IMG/VR virus record: IMGVR_UViG_3300020469_000010
Strand: one strand, 5' to 3'
From: a virus
Length of the DNA: 64,000 nt
The notes beneath the pieces were generated by a model. It saw only the letters and a program-made list of their open reading frames with translations. It was not told the origin of the DNA and did no database searches. The position numbers and the translations under genes are program-made. Below, in pieces: positions 45,922 to 55,168 of the stretch; position 1 is the stretch's first letter, and each line of letters begins with the position of its first letter.

Positions 45922-48069
45922 ATGTCCGTCAACTTTGAAGTCAAGGGTCAACTAGCAAAACTTCTTGCTACTGAGGATTTGATTGTTGAACATCGTCCGG
46001 TTGAGACAGCAATGTTTAATGTTCAGAGTAGAGTTCTAACTCTACCTATGTGGAAAAAGGCATCGGAGTCTGTCTTCGATATGTTGGTAGCTCATGAGGT
46101 TGGTCATGCTCTATTCACTCCTGATGATTGGTCGTTTGAAGGTAAAATTCCTCAACAGTTTGTTAATATAACTGAAGATGCTCGCATTGAAAAATTGATG
46201 AAACGCAAGTATGCAGGTTTATCAAAAACTTTCTTCAGAGGTTATAACGAACTTGCTGATGAAGATTTTTTCTGTCTTGAGAATGAAGATATTTCTAAAA
46301 TGAATCTTGCTGACAGAACAAATCTCTGGTTCAAGATTAGTAACTTTGTTGATATTCCTATTGAAGATGGTGAGGAAAGAGAAATCATCGATATGATTGG
46401 AAGTGCAGAAACTTTTGCTGATGCTGTTCTAGCTGCTGAATATTTGTACAAATACTGTAAGGCAAAACAGAATAATGCCGATCAACCTCAACAACAAAGT
46501 TCTGGACAATCAAATAATAGTGATAATGAGGGAATGACTCATGAAGAGATGATGGAGGAAGCAGATCGTCGTGAAGATGCTAATGAAACGGATGGATCTG
46601 AAAATGCGGATCTTAAAGAAACTGGTGGTGGAAGCACTAATCAAGATGCCTCAGATCCCTTATCTGAGAATGAACCAAATGCAAAAACTGTAGATTCTCT
46701 GTCAGATGCAATTAAAGATCTTGCAGATTTATCTGCTATGGAAAATGTATATCTAGAGTTTCCTGAACTAAATCTTGATACAGTAGTTATTTCCAACAAA
46801 GAAGTGCATGATTATTGTGTTGATTTTTGGAAACCATATTTCGATTCAAATTCCGATTGCTTTGATTATGTAGATTCTAGTTATACTAAATTCAAAAAGT
46901 CTGCTCAGAAGGAAGTCAACTATTTGGTAAAAGAGTTTGAATGTAAGAAGGCAGCAGATTCTTATGCTCGTTCTACCACTGCTCGTACTGGAGTTCTTGA
47001 TTGCTCTAAACTGCATACATACAAATATAATGAAGATTTGTTTAAGAAAGTAACAACTCTTGCTGATGGTAAAAATCATGGTTTGGTTTTTGTTCTTGAT
47101 TGGTCTGGATCTATGAGTCCTATTCTTGAAAGCACTATCAAGCAACTTTATAATCTTATTTGGTTCTGTAGTAAAGTAAATATTCCTTTCGATGTATATT
47201 CCTTTACTAATGATTGGCATGTTGTTACATATGACGAAAAAGATCGTCCAGTTTTGCCACCTGCACACTATGCAGCAAAAGACAATCAACTTGTTGTCGA
47301 AGATAGTTTTTCTATGGTGAATATTCTAACCAGTAGAGTTTCTAAGAAAGAACTGGAATCTCAAATGAAGAATATCTATCGTGTTGTATTTTCTCTTAGA
47401 AGGTATCTAAACTATGATACACCCATTCGTATGGGTCTTTCTGGAACTCCTCTGAATGAAGCACTTGTTTCTCTAAGAAACATTATTCCTAAATTTAAAA
47501 AGGATAATAGTCTTCAAAAAGTTCAGTGTGTTGTTTTGACTGATGGAGAAGCTGCTCCTATGTCATATCATTCTACATTCAAAAATCTTTGGGATCCAGA
47601 ACCTGTTATGAGAACTCGTAGAATGACTGCTAATGCAATTATTCGTGATCGACGAACTGGTTCTACATATAAGGTAGATTCTCAGCATAGTTGTGCTTTT
47701 GTTTCTTTTACAAACTGCATTATCAACAATCTAAAAGACAATTATCCAGATACTAATTTTATTGGTATTCGTCTTCTAGAAACTGGGTCTTCTGGTTCTT
47801 TCATCAGAACTTATGCTTCTAATTTTTCTCAAGTAGAAAAGTATCGTGCCATTTGGAAAAAAAGTAAGTCAATTGTATTCAGTAGTGAAGACAATACTGG
47901 ATATGATACTTACTTCGGACTCTCTGGAAGTGATCTAGTTAATGATGATTCCTTTGTCGTTAATCCTTCTGCAACAAAATCACAAATCAAAAATGCTTTT
48001 GTAAAAAGTTTGAAAACTAAAAAGTTCAATAAAAAAGTCCTTAACGAATTTGTTTCTCTCATTGTATGA
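45922..48069 (+). CDS. Zn-metallopeptidase-like plus vWA (CobT-like) protein
   Basis: HEVGH...EDARIE, acidic linker, MIDAS motif LDWSGSM...GTP...LTDGE. ATG at 45922 follows the promoter. Confidence 0.85.
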   Translation: MSVNFEVKGQLAKLLATEDLIVEHRPVETAMFNVQSRVLTLPMWKKASESVFDMLVAHEVGHALFTPDDWSFEGKIPQQFVNITEDARIEKLMKRKYAGLSKTFFRGYNELADEDFFCLENEDISKMNLADRTNLWFKISNFVDIPIEDGEEREIIDMIGSAETFADAVLAAEYLYKYCKAKQNNADQPQQQSSGQSNNSDNEGMTHEEMMEEADRREDANETDGSENADLKETGGGSTNQDASDPLSENEPNAKTVDSLSDAIKDLADLSAMENVYLEFPELNLDTVVISNKEVHDYCVDFWKPYFDSNSDCFDYVDSSYTKFKKSAQKEVNYLVKEFECKKAADSYARSTTARTGVLDCSKLHTYKYNEDLFKKVTTLADGKNHGLVFVLDWSGSMSPILESTIKQLYNLIWFCSKVNIPFDVYSFTNDWHVVTYDEKDRPVLPPAHYAAKDNQLVVEDSFSMVNILTSRVSKKELESQMKNIYRVVFSLRRYLNYDTPIRMGLSGTPLNEALVSLRNIIPKFKKDNSLQKVQCVVLTDGEAAPMSYHSTFKNLWDPEPVMRTRRMTANAIIRDRRTGSTYKVDSQHSCAFVSFTNCIINNLKDNYPDTNFIGIRLLETGSSGSFIRTYASNFSQVEKYRAIWKKSKSIVFSSEDNTGYDTYFGLSGSDLVNDDSFVVNPSATKSQIKNAFVKSLKTKKFNKKVLNEFVSLIV

Positions 48070-48245
48070 AAAATTTAAAACATATTGTTTTAGAAGATAC
48101 CAGTGAGGTACTAGTGGTCTGCACTAGTGCCATTACTGCTATGGGGATAGGTGCAATAGTAAAACAATACTATCCTGGATATACGGCAAAAATAATTTCT
48201 GAAAAATACTACCATGAGTCAGTTCGCAAACTGTCCTCCGACTGA
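48066..48245 (+). CDS. 59-aa hypothetical protein (not in the ORF track)
   Basis: ATGA overlap with the upstream stop. MKNLKHIVLEDTSEVLVVCTSAITAMGIGAIVKQYYPGYTAKIISEKYYHESVRKLSSD. Confidence 0.6.
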   Translation: MKNLKHIVLEDTSEVLVVCTSAITAMGIGAIVKQYYPGYTAKIISEKYYHESVRKLSSD

Positions 48246-50032: not shown

Positions 50033-50687
50033 TTCAACTATTAATATTCTAAAAAACTTTTCCAACATTAATCAATCTCTTTTATTCAAGAGTGGCAACA
50101 AACTTCGCACAATTAGTGTGATGAAGAATATTCTTGCTGAAGTTGAAGTAACTGAAGAGTTTCCAAAAGATTTTGGTATCTATGATCTGAGTCAATTTCT
50201 TATGGGTTTAAGTCTGCATAAAGATCCTGAACTTGATATTGAGGACGATTCCTACATGGTTATCCGTGAAGGCAAGATGCGTTCTAAGTATTTCTTTGCC
50301 GATCCCAATGTAATTGTTACACCTCCAGAAAAAGATATTGTTCTTCAGTCTGAAGATGTTAATTTTACTCTATCCACTACTCAACTTGATAAACTTCTGA
50401 AGGCATCTTCTGTTTATCAATTGCCTGATCTTTCTGTAGTTGGTAATGCTGGTATAGTCAAACTAGTTGTATCTGACCGTAAGAACGATACATCTAATGA
50501 CTTCTCTATTATTGTTGGTGAGACTGATGCAACTTTCAGTTTCAACTTCAAAGTTGAGAATATTAAGATTCTTCCTGGTAGTTACAATGTTTCTATCTCT
50601 AAGAAACTTCTTTCCAAGTTTGTTAGTGAAGATAAGAATTTGACTTACTGGGTAGCACTAGAACCAGATTCTACTTACAATGATTGA
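50019..50687 (+). CDS. gp45: Sliding clamp gp45
   Basis: MKLS..T..ILKNFS.IN, FGIYDL..FL, YWVALE. Confidence 0.96.
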   Translation: MKLSDSTINILKNFSNINQSLLFKSGNKLRTISVMKNILAEVEVTEEFPKDFGIYDLSQFLMGLSLHKDPELDIEDDSYMVIREGKMRSKYFFADPNVIVTPPEKDIVLQSEDVNFTLSTTQLDKLLKASSVYQLPDLSVVGNAGIVKLVVSDRKNDTSNDFSIIVGETDATFSFNFKVENIKILPGSYNVSISKKLLSKFVSEDKNLTYWVALEPDSTYND

Positions 50688-51108
50688 TCAATCCAATAAA
50701 AAGGATTATCAAGGACCACTTTATGCTCCATGGCATAAGGTGGTTGTGGGCAAACAAATGAACAATTTGAAAATGAAACACATCTTATTTACTTTGAAGG
50801 GATGTGATACCTTTCTCCTTAATGATGAACTAATCGTAAAAAATTTAATTATTAATGCGGCAGAGATTTGTAGTTCAAAACTTCTTGCAATAAACTCTCA
50901 CAAGTTTGAACCTCAAGGTGTAACTTGTTTGGCAATGCTTGCTGAGTCTCATATTAGTATTCATACTTGGCCAGAGAAAGGTATGGCAGTGTGTGATGTT
51001 TTTACATGTGGAGCACACACAGAACCAGAAAAGGCAGTAGAATATATGCGTCTTGCTCTTGAAGCAAAAGACATTATCGTTAATGAATTTGTGAGACCTT
51101 TAGAATGA
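50680..51108 (+). CDS. speD: S-adenosylmethionine decarboxylase proenzyme family (pyruvoyl-dependent); alternative starts at 50758 and 50773
   Basis: FEPQGVT...LAESHISIHTWPE...DVFTCG. Confidence 0.9.
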   Translation: MIDQSNKKDYQGPLYAPWHKVVVGKQMNNLKMKHILFTLKGCDTFLLNDELIVKNLIINAAEICSSKLLAINSHKFEPQGVTCLAMLAESHISIHTWPEKGMAVCDVFTCGAHTEPEKAVEYMRLALEAKDIIVNEFVRPLE

Positions 51109-52058
51109 CCATGCGTGATGAATTTTTGTGGGTTGAGAAGTATCGACCCAAAACTGTAGAAGAGTGTATACTTCCTGACAATATCAAAAAAACATTTAAA
51201 AGTTTCCTAGATAAAGGAGAGATTCCTAACCTGCTTCTAGCAGGTCCACCCGGAATCGGAAAGACAACGATTGCTAAGGCACTTTGTCATCAACTTGGAG
51301 CTGACTATTATGTCATCAACGGATCCGATGAAGGACGATTCCTTGATACCGTCCGGAACCAAGCCAAGAATTTTGCTTCGACCGTATCACTTTCGTCATC
51401 TGACGCAAAGCACAAAGTCATCATTATTGACGAGGCTGACAACACAACCCACGATGTACAACTCCTCTTACGGGCAAATATTGAGGCATTTTATAGCAAC
51501 TGCCGATTCATCTTTACCTGTAACTTCAAAAACAAAATCATCGAACCTCTTCACTCCAGATGTTCCGTCATCGACTTTGGAATCAACGGAAAGAGTAAAC
51601 CAGAAATTGCAGCAAAATTCTTCAACCGTCTCAAGACTATCTTGGAGACAGAGAATATTAAATATGATCAAAAAGTTCTCATCGAACTTGTAAACAAACA
51701 TTTTCCTGATTGGAGACGTGTTCTAAACGAATGCCAAAGATATTCTGCTAGTGGAAAAATTGATAGTGCTATTCTTGCAGAATTTTCTGATGTCAATACT
51801 AAAAATCTAGTCAAGTTTCTTAAAGACAAAAACTTTCCTGAAGTACGCAAGTGGATTGTTTCCAATCTAGATAATGATACTTCTGTACTATTGCGTCGTA
51901 TTTATGATGCTTGTTATGATTCTTTAGTTCCTGGTTCTATTCCTGCTGCTGTACTTGTTCTTGCTAAGTATCAGTATCAAGGTGCTTTTGTTGCTGATCA
52001 AGAGATAAACATGCTTGCTTGTCTAACTGAAATTATGGTGGAGTGTGAATTCAAGTGA
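51105..52058 (+). CDS. gp44: Clamp loader large subunit gp44
   Basis: WVEKYRP, GPPGIGKTT, IIDEAD, PLHSRC. Confidence 0.97.
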   Translation: MTMRDEFLWVEKYRPKTVEECILPDNIKKTFKSFLDKGEIPNLLLAGPPGIGKTTIAKALCHQLGADYYVINGSDEGRFLDTVRNQAKNFASTVSLSSSDAKHKVIIIDEADNTTHDVQLLLRANIEAFYSNCRFIFTCNFKNKIIEPLHSRCSVIDFGINGKSKPEIAAKFFNRLKTILETENIKYDQKVLIELVNKHFPDWRRVLNECQRYSASGKIDSAILAEFSDVNTKNLVKFLKDKNFPEVRKWIVSNLDNDTSVLLRRIYDACYDSLVPGSIPAAVLVLAKYQYQGAFVADQEINMLACLTEIMVECEFK

Positions 52059-52453
52059 CTAATTTTTCTCCAAAGGGAATATTTAAGGAATGTTCAAATT
52101 TATCTCAACAAGTTACAATGGGTGTTACTAGAGGAATGTCCAAAGTAGCAACACTGGGATATCTTCCTGCTAGTTTTACTGCTGATGCTCAATCTGATGT
52201 AGACTTTTTGGCCTATAATCCCACTACAGGAGATGTTAAAAAGGTTCAATGTAAAACTACAACTTACAGAAAAGAAAAACACTATATTGCTTCCTTAAAA
52301 AGTGGAGGTAAAGGTAAGGGTAATCGAAAAGTTGCAAAAGATTATGATTGGTTGTTTGTATTAGATGCTGAAGGTAATGAATTTCTCATTGATTATGCTG
52401 AGATTAAAGACAGAACAACACAAGTTACTATGATGGAGTGTGAATTCAAATGA
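52055..52453 (+). CDS. Putative PD-(D/E)XK nuclease
   Basis: DVDFLAY......KKVQCKTT motif; YDWLFVL. Confidence 0.6.
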   Translation: MTNFSPKGIFKECSNLSQQVTMGVTRGMSKVATLGYLPASFTADAQSDVDFLAYNPTTGDVKKVQCKTTTYRKEKHYIASLKSGGKGKGNRKVAKDYDWLFVLDAEGNEFLIDYAEIKDRTTQVTMMECEFK

Positions 52454-53142
52454 ATCAAGTAATTACTAAGGGTAAAGTTAAAACGGTTATTCAGTGTCTT
52501 GATGAAAATCAAGTTTTAATTCAGTATCACGATAAAGTTACTGCGGGTAATGGTGCTAAAGAAGAAAATTTTGAAGGTAAGGGAAAACTTACTGCTGAAA
52601 TTTCGTCTTTAATTTTTAAAAAATTGGAAGAGGCAGGAATCAATACACACTTCATTCAGTCTGCTGGAAAGGGAATGATGCGATGTAAAAAAGTTGCAAT
52701 CATTCCTATCGAAGTTGTAGTCAGAAATATTGCTGATGGTTCTATCGTCAGGGATACTAGAATTCCAAAAAACACGGTATTCAGTCCTCCCTTGATTGAA
52801 TTTTATTTGAAAGATGATAGTAAAAATGATCCTCTTATAACTGAAGATAGATTATCTCTAATGGGATACAAGGATTTGAGATTTATTAAAAGGTATGCTG
52901 CAGAAGTAAATGCTGTTGTTTCTACACTCTTTAATAAAATTGGAATCACTCTAGTAGATTTTAAACTTGAGTTTGGTTCAACTGTTGATGGTGAAATTGT
53001 TGTCGCTGACGAAATCAGTCCAGATGGATGTAGATTGCGTAACTCAGATAATAAAAGTATGGACAAAGACTTGTTTAGAAAAAATGAGGGTGATATTATT
53101 AAAGCATACTCTCAAATACTAAAATCTTTGAAGGAGATTTGA
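52450..53142 (+). CDS. purC: SAICAR synthetase
   Basis: GKVK, IPIEVVVRN.A.GS, EFYLKDD...DP, LVDFKLEFG, ADEISPD.CR, DKD.FR. Confidence 0.95.
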   Translation: MNQVITKGKVKTVIQCLDENQVLIQYHDKVTAGNGAKEENFEGKGKLTAEISSLIFKKLEEAGINTHFIQSAGKGMMRCKKVAIIPIEVVVRNIADGSIVRDTRIPKNTVFSPPLIEFYLKDDSKNDPLITEDRLSLMGYKDLRFIKRYAAEVNAVVSTLFNKIGITLVDFKLEFGSTVDGEIVVADEISPDGCRLRNSDNKSMDKDLFRKNEGDIIKAYSQILKSLKEI

Positions 53143-53159
53143 ATGGAGTGTGACTTCAA

Positions 53160-53417
53160 GTGAAACATCATATTCCTGATGAAATTAGAAAGAATGGATT
53201 TGTCTGTTTTGGAATTTTAAACAAAGCAGAGAGGGCAGTTATAATGATGGGTGATGATGCTTACAGAGAATCATTAGACCTTGAGAATGATGATGCTCCG
53301 TGCTGGAAAATGCCTTCCAGTGAAACATATGGATTTGTAGGTTGGAATCCTCAATGTGTTCCAACTATTGATTATATTGTATGGAAACTTGATAGACATG
53401 CAAAACTGGTATCATGA
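53160..53417 (+). CDS. Hypothetical protein
   Basis: GTG start inside repeat copy 3 with an upstream GGAG; tight gene packing. Confidence 0.6.
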   Translation: MKHHIPDEIRKNGFVCFGILNKAERAVIMMGDDAYRESLDLENDDAPCWKMPSSETYGFVGWNPQCVPTIDYIVWKLDRHAKLVS

Positions 53418-53614
53418 GAGATCATATGAATAAGAATGATCTTGAAGAATTGAAATATGATGTAGCACATCATTTACTTAGTAAAATGAGTAAAGGTTCT
53501 CAATTTCAATATGCCTTAGATAAAATGCTAGAACTCTGTGATCAATACACAGAAAAAGAGTTGAAAGATTTATTACCCAAACAAAAGAAAAAAACAAAAG
53601 GAGGAGGATTCTGA
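53414..53614 (+). CDS. Hypothetical protein
   Basis: ATGA overlap; ends KKKTKGGGF. Confidence 0.6.
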   Translation: MRDHMNKNDLEELKYDVAHHLLSKMSKGSQFQYALDKMLELCDQYTEKELKDLLPKQKKKTKGGGF

Positions 53615-53921: not shown

Positions 53922-54797
53922 ATGAAAGCATTGAAGACACCATTAAGGTATCCTGGAGGAAAGTCTAAAGCAATTAAGACTCTTTCTCAGTGGTATCCAA
54001 AAATTATCACTGAATATCGTGAACCATTTATTGGTGGTGGGTCTATTGCAATTGATGTGACTAAGGCAAATCCAGATATTCCTGTATGGATAAATGACCT
54101 GTATGTGCCCTTGTACAATTTCTGGGTACAACTACGAGATCGTGGTCGAGACCTCTCAGAGAGTGTTAGAGAGCAGAAAGAGAAGATGCTTGAGAGTGGA
54201 ACTCAAGAAGAAAAGGACAAATTTGCCAAAAACCTGTTCGATCAGTATGCCTCAGAGATTGACACCTATGACAAATTTGAGAAAGCAGTTGCTTTCTTTA
54301 TCATGAATAAGTGTAGTTATTCTGGACTAACTGAGAATAGTTCTTTCTCTCGCACTGCTGCTAACTCTAACTTCTCTTTAGTTGGTGCAGACAAACTTGC
54401 ACAATTTTCAAAACTTATCAAAAATTGGAATATCACCAATATTGATTATTCTAAAGTTATGAATGCTTCTGGATTAGATAATACTTTTGTATTTCTTGAT
54501 CCTCCTTATGATATCAAAGATTTTTTGTATGGAAAGAATCGTGAAATGCATAAATCATTTGATCATGAAGTATTTGCTGAAAATGTATATGCATGTCCTC
54601 ATAACTTTATGATCACTTACAATGTAAATGATCGTTTACTTGAGTTGTATAAAGATTATCATCTTGAGTATTGGAAACTACGTTATTCCATGGTCCACCG
54701 TGGAGATAAAAATACTCAGGATAATGTAAAGACTGAGTTACTTGTTACAAATTATTCTCTTACACCACTCACACCCCTAGAAGAACAATGGAACTGA
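53922..54797 (+). CDS. dam: DNA adenine methyltransferase (Dam/D12 class)
   Basis: LRYPGGKS, EPFIGGGS, FLDPPY, ELLVTNY. Confidence 0.92.
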   Translation: MKALKTPLRYPGGKSKAIKTLSQWYPKIITEYREPFIGGGSIAIDVTKANPDIPVWINDLYVPLYNFWVQLRDRGRDLSESVREQKEKMLESGTQEEKDKFAKNLFDQYASEIDTYDKFEKAVAFFIMNKCSYSGLTENSSFSRTAANSNFSLVGADKLAQFSKLIKNWNITNIDYSKVMNASGLDNTFVFLDPPYDIKDFLYGKNREMHKSFDHEVFAENVYACPHNFMITYNVNDRLLELYKDYHLEYWKLRYSMVHRGDKNTQDNVKTELLVTNYSLTPLTPLEEQWN

Positions 54798-55168
54798 AAG
54801 ATTGGCTTAACTCTATTAATCAAACAAAAACAAATTTGATTGAAGAAGATCCTTCTGTTACCAAAGAATATCCACCATATATTATTAATAGATGTTTATC
54901 CGGACATCTTGATTGTATTATGTTTGTTAATGAAATGAATAAGTATCATTTTTTAGATAAAGATATGCAATATTCATTTTTACTAAATAGTCTCAGGAAA
55001 AAGAAGAGATTCTCTCCTTGGATTCGTAAAGAAAAAATTGATGATCTTAATACCATAAAAAAATATTATGGATATTCTGATGAAAAGTCAAAGGAAGCTT
55101 TAAGAATTCTTACAACTGACCAGATCAACTTCATTAGATCTAAATTTGAAACAGGTGGAAAAAAATGA
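54788..55168 (+). CDS. gp62: Clamp loader small subunit gp62
   Basis: YPPYIINRCLS, MQY.FL...RK.KRFSPW, YYGYS.EK. Confidence 0.93.
   Translation: MELKDWLNSINQTKTNLIEEDPSVTKEYPPYIINRCLSGHLDCIMFVNEMNKYHFLDKDMQYSFLLNSLRKKKRFSPWIRKEKIDDLNTIKKYYGYSDEKSKEALRILTTDQINFIRSKFETGGKK

Follow-up and report, generated by a model that had tools for sequence, protein, structure and literature searches.

The 64,000-nucleotide (nt) stretch of marine cyanophage DNA analyzed here in its whole length, IMG/VR record IMGVR_UViG_3300020469_000010 (hereinafter the window), carries three direct copies of a 21-nt sequence, denoted T, of which the first is the 3' end of gp44, the gene for the large subunit of the clamp loader. 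We consider it probable that this arrangement results from the insertion of homing-nuclease cassettes at the gp44 stop codon, each cassette bearing at its own 3' end a copy of T that would serve both as a stop/restart junction and, on the right-hand side, as a homology arm that is the same as the target.

Repeat T and the genes downstream of gp44

The 20-nt pattern reported in the original prediction has three exact matches in the window, all on the + strand (52039-52058, 52434-52453 and 53144-53163), compared with 0.05 expected by chance, and three or more matches appeared in none of 100 shuffles; in a repeat search, the T family ranks at the top of the direct repeats of the region. The complete repeat unit is 21 nt long, extending one base further at the 5' end, and opens with GTG or ATG; its consensus is ATGGAGTGTGAATTCAAATGA, from which T1 departs in the first codon, which is GTG. 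Inverted copies of T are absent from the window. The three copies lie where they had been placed by the original prediction, namely at the end of gp44, at the end of a PD-(D/E)XK-like open reading frame (ORF) with the terminal peptide MMECEFK-stop, and directly after the purC stop. The components of the array and the second clamp loader gene are as follows.

51105-52058, + strand: gp44, clamp loader large subunit, 317 amino acids (aa); Pfam Gp44_lid 1.9e-17 and AAA 3.2e-17; ends with MVECEFK-stop, its last 21 nt being T1
52038-52058, + strand: T1, native gp44 3' end (VECEFK-stop), which holds GGAG and a GTGA stop/start overlap
52055-52453, + strand: ORF132, PD-(D/E)XK nuclease-like, with an I-Ssp6803I-like predicted fold, 132 aa; starts from the T1 overlap, and its 3' end is T2, read in frame; phrog_5018 3.8e-10
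52433-52453, + strand: T2, perfect copy of the consensus; closes ORF132 and supplies the ATGA start of purC
52450-53142, + strand: purC (SAICAR synthetase), auxiliary metabolic gene; Pfam SAICAR_synt 1.4e-67
53143-53163, + strand: T3, free-standing six-codon mini-ORF (MECDFK-stop) right after the purC stop, with two mismatches to the consensus; supplies the GTGA start of the next ORF
53160-53417, + strand: conserved cyanophage ORF, T4-GC1036 / phrog_1132 (1.1e-46), the usual neighbor of purC (hereinafter the GC1036 ORF)
54788-55168, + strand: gp62, clamp loader small subunit; Pfam Phage_clamp_A

Each copy of T in the window finishes in GTGA or ATGA, and the next ORF opens at that point (GTG at 52055, ATG at 52450 and GTG at 53160); the genes from gp45 to regA are all co-directional, with overlapping stops and starts. 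Scans for promoter-like and terminator-like sites revealed no excess and no such site at T, so a role of T as a promoter or terminator cassette was rejected; the clearest terminator-like hairpin of the region sits after regA. A further candidate copy within the GC1036 ORF (53304-53328, 80% identity) is not conserved in relatives and was taken as a chance match.

The same anatomy recurs throughout the family. A motif scan across viral contigs yielded at least 119 loci, in most of which T is the gp44 3' end (...IMMECEFK-stop) and is followed by a gene that opens at the overlap and whose identity varies widely from locus to locus. The viral contigs contain 596 relatives of gp44; in the 201 related loci that were collected, T closes gp44, and the gene that follows is hypervariable yet always begins at the T overlap. 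When the genes downstream of gp44 were mapped in 192 loci, the interval between gp44 and gp62 was found to range from 0 to more than 10 genes, with gp62 beginning directly at the gp44 T overlap in 9 loci. T, that is, the last seven codons of gp44 together with the ATGA/GTGA overlap, is the native gp44 3' end in cyanomyoviruses. Because gp62 starts at this overlap in these nine loci, T can also be interpreted as the putative junction for translational coupling of gp44 and gp62, and gp62 appears to be the ancestral partner of this junction. In phage T4, the same two genes, which also share a stop/start overlap, are translationally coupled (PMC2988022); unlike in T4, insertions of one to more than ten genes separate the two in most cyanomyoviruses, and copies of the junction have arisen. 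We also observed a D12-class adenine methyltransferase gene (53922-54797 in the window) between gp44 and gp62 in most of the 192 loci, which in some cases opens at the T overlap.

Conservation of codons was assessed in 81 sequences, namely the window and 80 gp44 loci that had not been selected for the presence of T. The gp44 stop is TGA in 93% of these sequences, and synonymous sites are somewhat more conserved in T than in neighboring codons (frequency of the major codon 0.77-0.92 vs 0.32-0.84 at codons -27 to -9). Such conservation would be compatible with T being a protein-binding site, either the recognition site of the nuclease, as an 8-base-pair (bp) palindrome within T (TGAATTCA) could suggest, or an operator bound by the translational repressor RegA, which is encoded downstream in the same operon. 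This explanation appears highly improbable: the cassette-bearing genomes hold two or three intact copies of T and so would cut themselves, and the two halves of T show no enrichment elsewhere in the window, on which ground T was rejected as a general regulatory motif or RegA operator. Moreover, the T contexts fold no better than shuffled sequences (z-scores of +1.3, +0.8 and -0.2) and match no Rfam family, the best being a sub-threshold S15-leader (E 0.12), so T was also rejected as an RNA structure or a member of a known RNA family.

Two or three copies of T, all direct and none inverted, are present in about 30 loci, and at least two copies in 9 of the 80 gp44 loci not selected for T. Among the types of genes located between T copies (hereinafter cargo), about 12 of 19 are nuclease-like and belong to HNH_3 with NUMOD4, HNH, Endonuclease_7, PDDEXK_5 and the PHROG endonuclease families phrog_3322, phrog_953 and phrog_4234. 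In the isolate S-H35, the order is gp44-T-HNH (192 aa)-T-HNH (249 aa). Both HNH ORFs of this Synechococcus phage (L286, NC_055719; 1907-2485 and 2492-3241) are intact and preceded by T, and they lie in a 1.3-kb stretch that RefSeq leaves unannotated, downstream of gp44 and ahead of the next gene that carries an annotation.

Cargo ORFs meet T in frame in 13 cases (...ECEFK-stop), stop at its internal TGA in 11 (...GV-stop) and read through it in the third frame in 5; a few others stop ahead of T and leave it as a mini-ORF. T holds stop codons in two frames, within 10 nt of the restart codon. Because every one of the three frames of T is used by some cargo ORF, it specifies no functional peptide and acts at the level of DNA or RNA. 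The tails on the cargo side almost always conform to the consensus ATG type, even beside a variant resident gp44 tail, which implies that they came with the cargo or the slot rather than by fresh local duplication.

These tails bear on the possibility that T has no role in mobility and that genes were instead joined by illegitimate recombination at the ATGA overlap, the survivors being those insertions that duplicated the end of gp44, with the downstream gene needing the coupling signal. Consistent with such a scenario, each T feeds a downstream start, older insertions retain only a decayed GGAG...ATGA relic, and an insertion in the phage isolate S-ShM2 is bounded by a mere 4-bp ATGA repeat. 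Nevertheless, we regard it as quite unlikely: the cargo tails are near-perfect 21-mers that differ in type from the resident gp44 tail, and hence travel with the cargo, and the islands of high identity described below stop exactly at T.

Two further observations concern the distribution of T. At L013 (2936-2980), and also at L079 and L117, the gp44 tail is diverged (VECTFK-stop, with a TAA stop codon) and is followed by a pristine T mini-ORF with no cargo between the two, a tandem arrangement that simple recombination between T copies does not explain. Exact matches to the motif at L015 (2830-2850), L058 and L090 represent a single unrelated phage, where they lie at a junction of tail-module genes with no gp44, purC or GC1036 ORF nearby, and were considered to be due to chance.

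ORF132 and the mosaic structure of its cassette

The description of the 132-aa ORF as nuclease-like in the original prediction agrees with its predicted structure. The AlphaFold model of ORF132 (pLDDT 69, pTM 0.68, with pLDDT below 50 for the seven tail residues) adopts a restriction-endonuclease-like fold, for which the best Foldseek match is the homing endonuclease I-Ssp6803I (2OST; TM-score 0.61, E 2.7e-5). The same protein is the top match in the PDB for a seven-sequence profile (E 0.02), and in the profile alignment D50 and Q65-x-K67 of ORF132, which make up the D...(E/Q)xK motif, line up with YDL...QVK of 2OST. At the level of sequence, ORF132 is 38% identical to the cargo of L007, which weakly matches PDDEXK_5 (17.8 bits vs the cut-off of 26.1), and the cargo of L102 is above this cut-off (59.8 bits); no close homologue of ORF132 is present in cultured phages among 50,697 records. 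I-Ssp6803I, a PD-(D/E)XK enzyme of the PDDEXK_5 family from an intron in the tRNA-fMet gene of Synechocystis, is similar to ORF132 in size; unlike I-Ssp6803I, ORF132 is free-standing rather than intron-encoded, shares only 12% identity with it and falls below the Pfam threshold. ORF132 can thus be classified as I-Ssp6803I-like by fold and motif rather than as a member of the Pfam family, with a putative nuclease activity.

The identity of the ORF132 cassette is strongly mosaic. The body of ORF132 is 93-97% identical among four contigs (the window, L154, L065 and L037), compared with 73-79% in the gp44 flank (positions -160 to -46), and the identity ends precisely with the last base of T2. Beyond it, the sequences are unrelated from the very first base because the next genes differ, namely purC in the window, c11 in L154, a 43-aa ORF in L065 and c4 in L037. 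The cassette is thus more similar than its flanks and is accompanied by a co-conversion-like tract in gp44, as is characteristic of homing genes. Similarly, the unit that consists of the 43-aa ORF between two copies of T is approximately 91% identical in backgrounds of 76-80%, with the island of identity taking in both T copies in full and extending no further. The 'gene + gp44 tail' unit postulated in the original prediction is accordingly confirmed as a general one, being recognizable both in ORF132 plus T, with its different downstream genes, and in the 43-aa ORF plus T, which occupies several array positions.

The original prediction also held that empty-site and alternative-cargo alleles should exist, and both kinds of polymorphism were found between close relatives at the fixed gp44 site. 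The empty allele is L127, which is 96% identical to the window at the nucleotide level over 11 kb and in which, as blastn and an alignment of the junction show, the gp44 tail is joined straight to a 66-aa ORF. The alternative-cargo alleles are L065 and L078, which are 98% identical in gp44 and again from T2 onward and carry between T1 and T2 either ORF132 or an unrelated 149-aa ORF, respectively. The comparison of the window with L127 delineates three segments.

52059-53429, + strand: block absent from L127, 1.37 kb, which includes ORF132, T2, purC, T3 and the GC1036 ORF (blastn of L127 against the window)
52014-52058, + strand: left divergent tract; the last 45 nt of gp44 contain seven synonymous differences relative to L127, compared with 98% identity upstream
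53430-53465, + strand: right divergent tract; the 66-aa ORF differs from that of L127 at nine positions within its first ~35 nt

The two tracts that flank the L127 junction look like conversion tracts derived from a diverged partner.

These observations are compatible with the following scenario. The gp44-gp62 junction would be a hot spot for the insertion of free-standing homing-type nuclease genes in cyanomyoviruses, the inserted gene starting from the stop/start overlap of the T already in place and ending in a further T. The second T could play two roles: (i) it would end the cargo ORF in whichever frame it arrives and pass the ribosome to the next gene, and (ii) it would provide right-hand homology identical to the target. 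Because the ribosome would be handed to the next gene, an insertion should cost the phage little, and recombination-dependent repair could then copy the cassette behind any gp44, whichever gene is located downstream. Under this scenario, T1-ORF132-T2 would represent a recent cassette in the window, and purC with the GC1036 ORF an older linked pair.

The identity islands and the exchange of cargo could also result from nuclease-independent shuffling similar to that of PeSL repeats (an early promoter plus a terminator stem-loop), in which homologous recombination between T copies would excise and re-insert a gene together with T, possibly as mini-circles, and the nucleases would be frequent passengers. 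In favor of such shuffling, the 43-aa ORF, which is not a nuclease, accompanies T in several positions within islands that run from T to T, the cargo of L065 and L078 is swapped exactly at T, and mini-circles are documented in T4-type phages (PMC2839356). Elsewhere in the window, a 59-aa ORF (48066-48245) located between genes of 758 and 396 aa is missing from L127, and the two phages thus differ by an indel at one more gene boundary; this 128-bp indel (48075-48202) has an 8-bp direct repeat, TGAAAAAT, on either side. Like T, PeSL repeats are short repeated expression signals that flank the variable genes of a hyperplastic region, and phages that are nearly identical differ in the cargo between the repeats (PMC2839356, PMC4122927). 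We nevertheless consider this explanation unlikely: most types of cargo are nucleases, from several unrelated families, and the co-conversion-like tract runs past T into gp44. Furthermore, T is far shorter than PeSL and, unlike the intergenic promoter-terminator, is a coding sequence with a stop/start overlap, the scans of T contexts having revealed no promoter, terminator or stem-loop.

Several observations weigh against the insertion of homing-nuclease cassettes by means of T. At 21 nt, T is a short homology arm. ORF132 gives no Pfam hit at E <= 0.01 and so does not reach the gathering score of PF11645 (PDDEXK_5), and the quality of its model is only moderate. Some of the T-flanked cargo is not nuclease-like (the 43-aa ORF, which is membrane-like, a 68-aa ORF, a 78-aa ORF, a few unknowns and purC), and some nucleases in the first position have a decayed T or none, e.g., in L114 and L161. 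The original prediction had described each copy of T as supplying a GGAG Shine-Dalgarno sequence and an overlap; the GTGA/ATGA overlap does open the next ORF, but the GGAG precedes each start by 11 nt, a long distance for Shine-Dalgarno spacing. Finally, the block missing from L127 has no significant copy of T at its right end: a fourth copy proposed there was rejected, as it matches at 12 of 21 positions, a score that is equalled by 6% of the ATGA-ending 21-mers in the window. Homology in the flanks alone explains this exchange, and, because a significant T is lacking at the right end, the gain or loss that separates the window from L127 relied on homology within gp44 and the 66-aa ORF rather than on recombination between T copies.

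The role of T could be broader still. As an any-frame stop-and-restart adaptor combined with a minimal homology arm, T might turn the gp44 stop codon into an integrase-free site of gene capture, where nucleases open the site and passengers, including purC, are captured, expressed by coupling, stacked and spread between lineages; we regard this generalization as conceivable but doubtful.

purC and the GC1036 junction

In the original prediction, purC with T3 was regarded as another acquired unit of the same kind. We rejected purC plus T as a recurrent unit because none of the 80 purC loci examined beyond the window has T beside purC; a T-like match in L206 was discarded because it falls within a purS-like ORF and does not include the stop. 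The pair of purC and the GC1036 ORF is commonly linked (S-ShM2, S-MbCM100 and S-RIM12), and the junction between the two is itself variable. In S-ShM2, this junction, located 7 kb from gp44, is occupied by an endonuclease VII-like gene (phrog_3322) that ends with ...TEIMMECELK-stop, a tail that matches the gp44 end of another clade, unlike the tail of the gp44 of the same phage (...TQLMMECEFK-stop); L095 likewise has an endonuclease VII-like gene with a T-type tail between purC and the GC1036 ORF. The junction is empty in S-MbCM100, where the two genes are joined by ATGA, and contains a different, 73-aa ORF in S-RIM12. Because S-ShM2 and L095 carry a tail-bearing nuclease at the same junction, T3 is better interpreted as probably the relic of a second, endonuclease VII-like nuclease cassette, the body of which was lost.

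In cyanomyoviruses, purC occurs in at least four places (L226, L229, L242, L237, L262 and others): between gp45 and gp44, between a methyltransferase gene and gp62, near psbA, and beside purS and the GC1036 ORF. Judging from these gene neighborhoods, purC appears to be a mobile auxiliary gene around the replication module. The purC homologue of S-RIM12 (KX349308, L003 2997-3695) bears the annotation 'ribosomal protein S6 glutaminyl transferase', probably in error. Another auxiliary gene inside the clamp/clamp-loader operon of the window is speD (S-adenosylmethionine decarboxylase; 50680-51108), which is located between gp45 and gp44 and overlaps both.

Comparison with known systems and implications

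Free-standing homing nucleases and PeSL shuffling are already known (PMC2988022, PMC2839356, PMC4122927), and endonuclease-flanked mobile cassettes have been noted in cyanophages at other sites by Sullivan et al. (PMC3037559). The gp44 cassettes recall, in several features, the free-standing homing genes of T4-like phages (seg and mob) and intronless homing: these are likewise small nuclease ORFs located between conserved genes, often overlapping the upstream stop, with presence/absence polymorphism and cassettes that are more conserved than their flanks and show co-conversion-like tracts (PMC2988022). The predicted nuclease families, namely the I-Ssp6803I-like fold of ORF132 and the HNH_3/NUMOD4, HNH, Endonuclease_7 and PDDEXK_5 domains of other cargo, are also those of homing endonucleases. 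The differences are that each gp44 cassette ends in a copy of the last 21 nt of the upstream gene and that, at gp44, several unrelated families of nucleases, the activity of which is predicted, use a single insertion point and a single tail.

The array also resembles integron arrays in that the cassettes are co-oriented, each has a 3' repeat, and newcomers lie beside a fixed entry point with the older ones further downstream. Unlike integron cassettes, the gp44 cassettes would be expressed via coupling and not by a common promoter alone, T being a translational junction; in addition, the 10 ORFs from speD to regA include no recombinase, and a folded attC-like site is lacking, T having no secondary structure. 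The same 10 ORFs encode no transposase domain, and the region contains only weak short inverted repeats, none of which bracket the block, as would be expected of a transposon with target-site duplication. A full-text literature search, which included the motif and did not cover all journals, retrieved no report of the coding 3' end of a gene, together with its coupling overlap, as a repeated cassette boundary, and no report of the motif.

The 21-nt T signature marks recent insertions, so that gene flux at one hot spot can be counted in metagenomes, and S-H35, an isolate with two such cassettes, makes the proposed mechanism testable in culture. The arrangement suggests a way in which selfish nuclease genes might enter an essential, translationally coupled replication operon without breaking it, by bringing along their own copy of the junction. 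The routes by which host-derived metabolic genes are gained and lost in marine cyanophages are poorly understood, and the gp44 stop codon offers a sequence-defined entry point for such genes.

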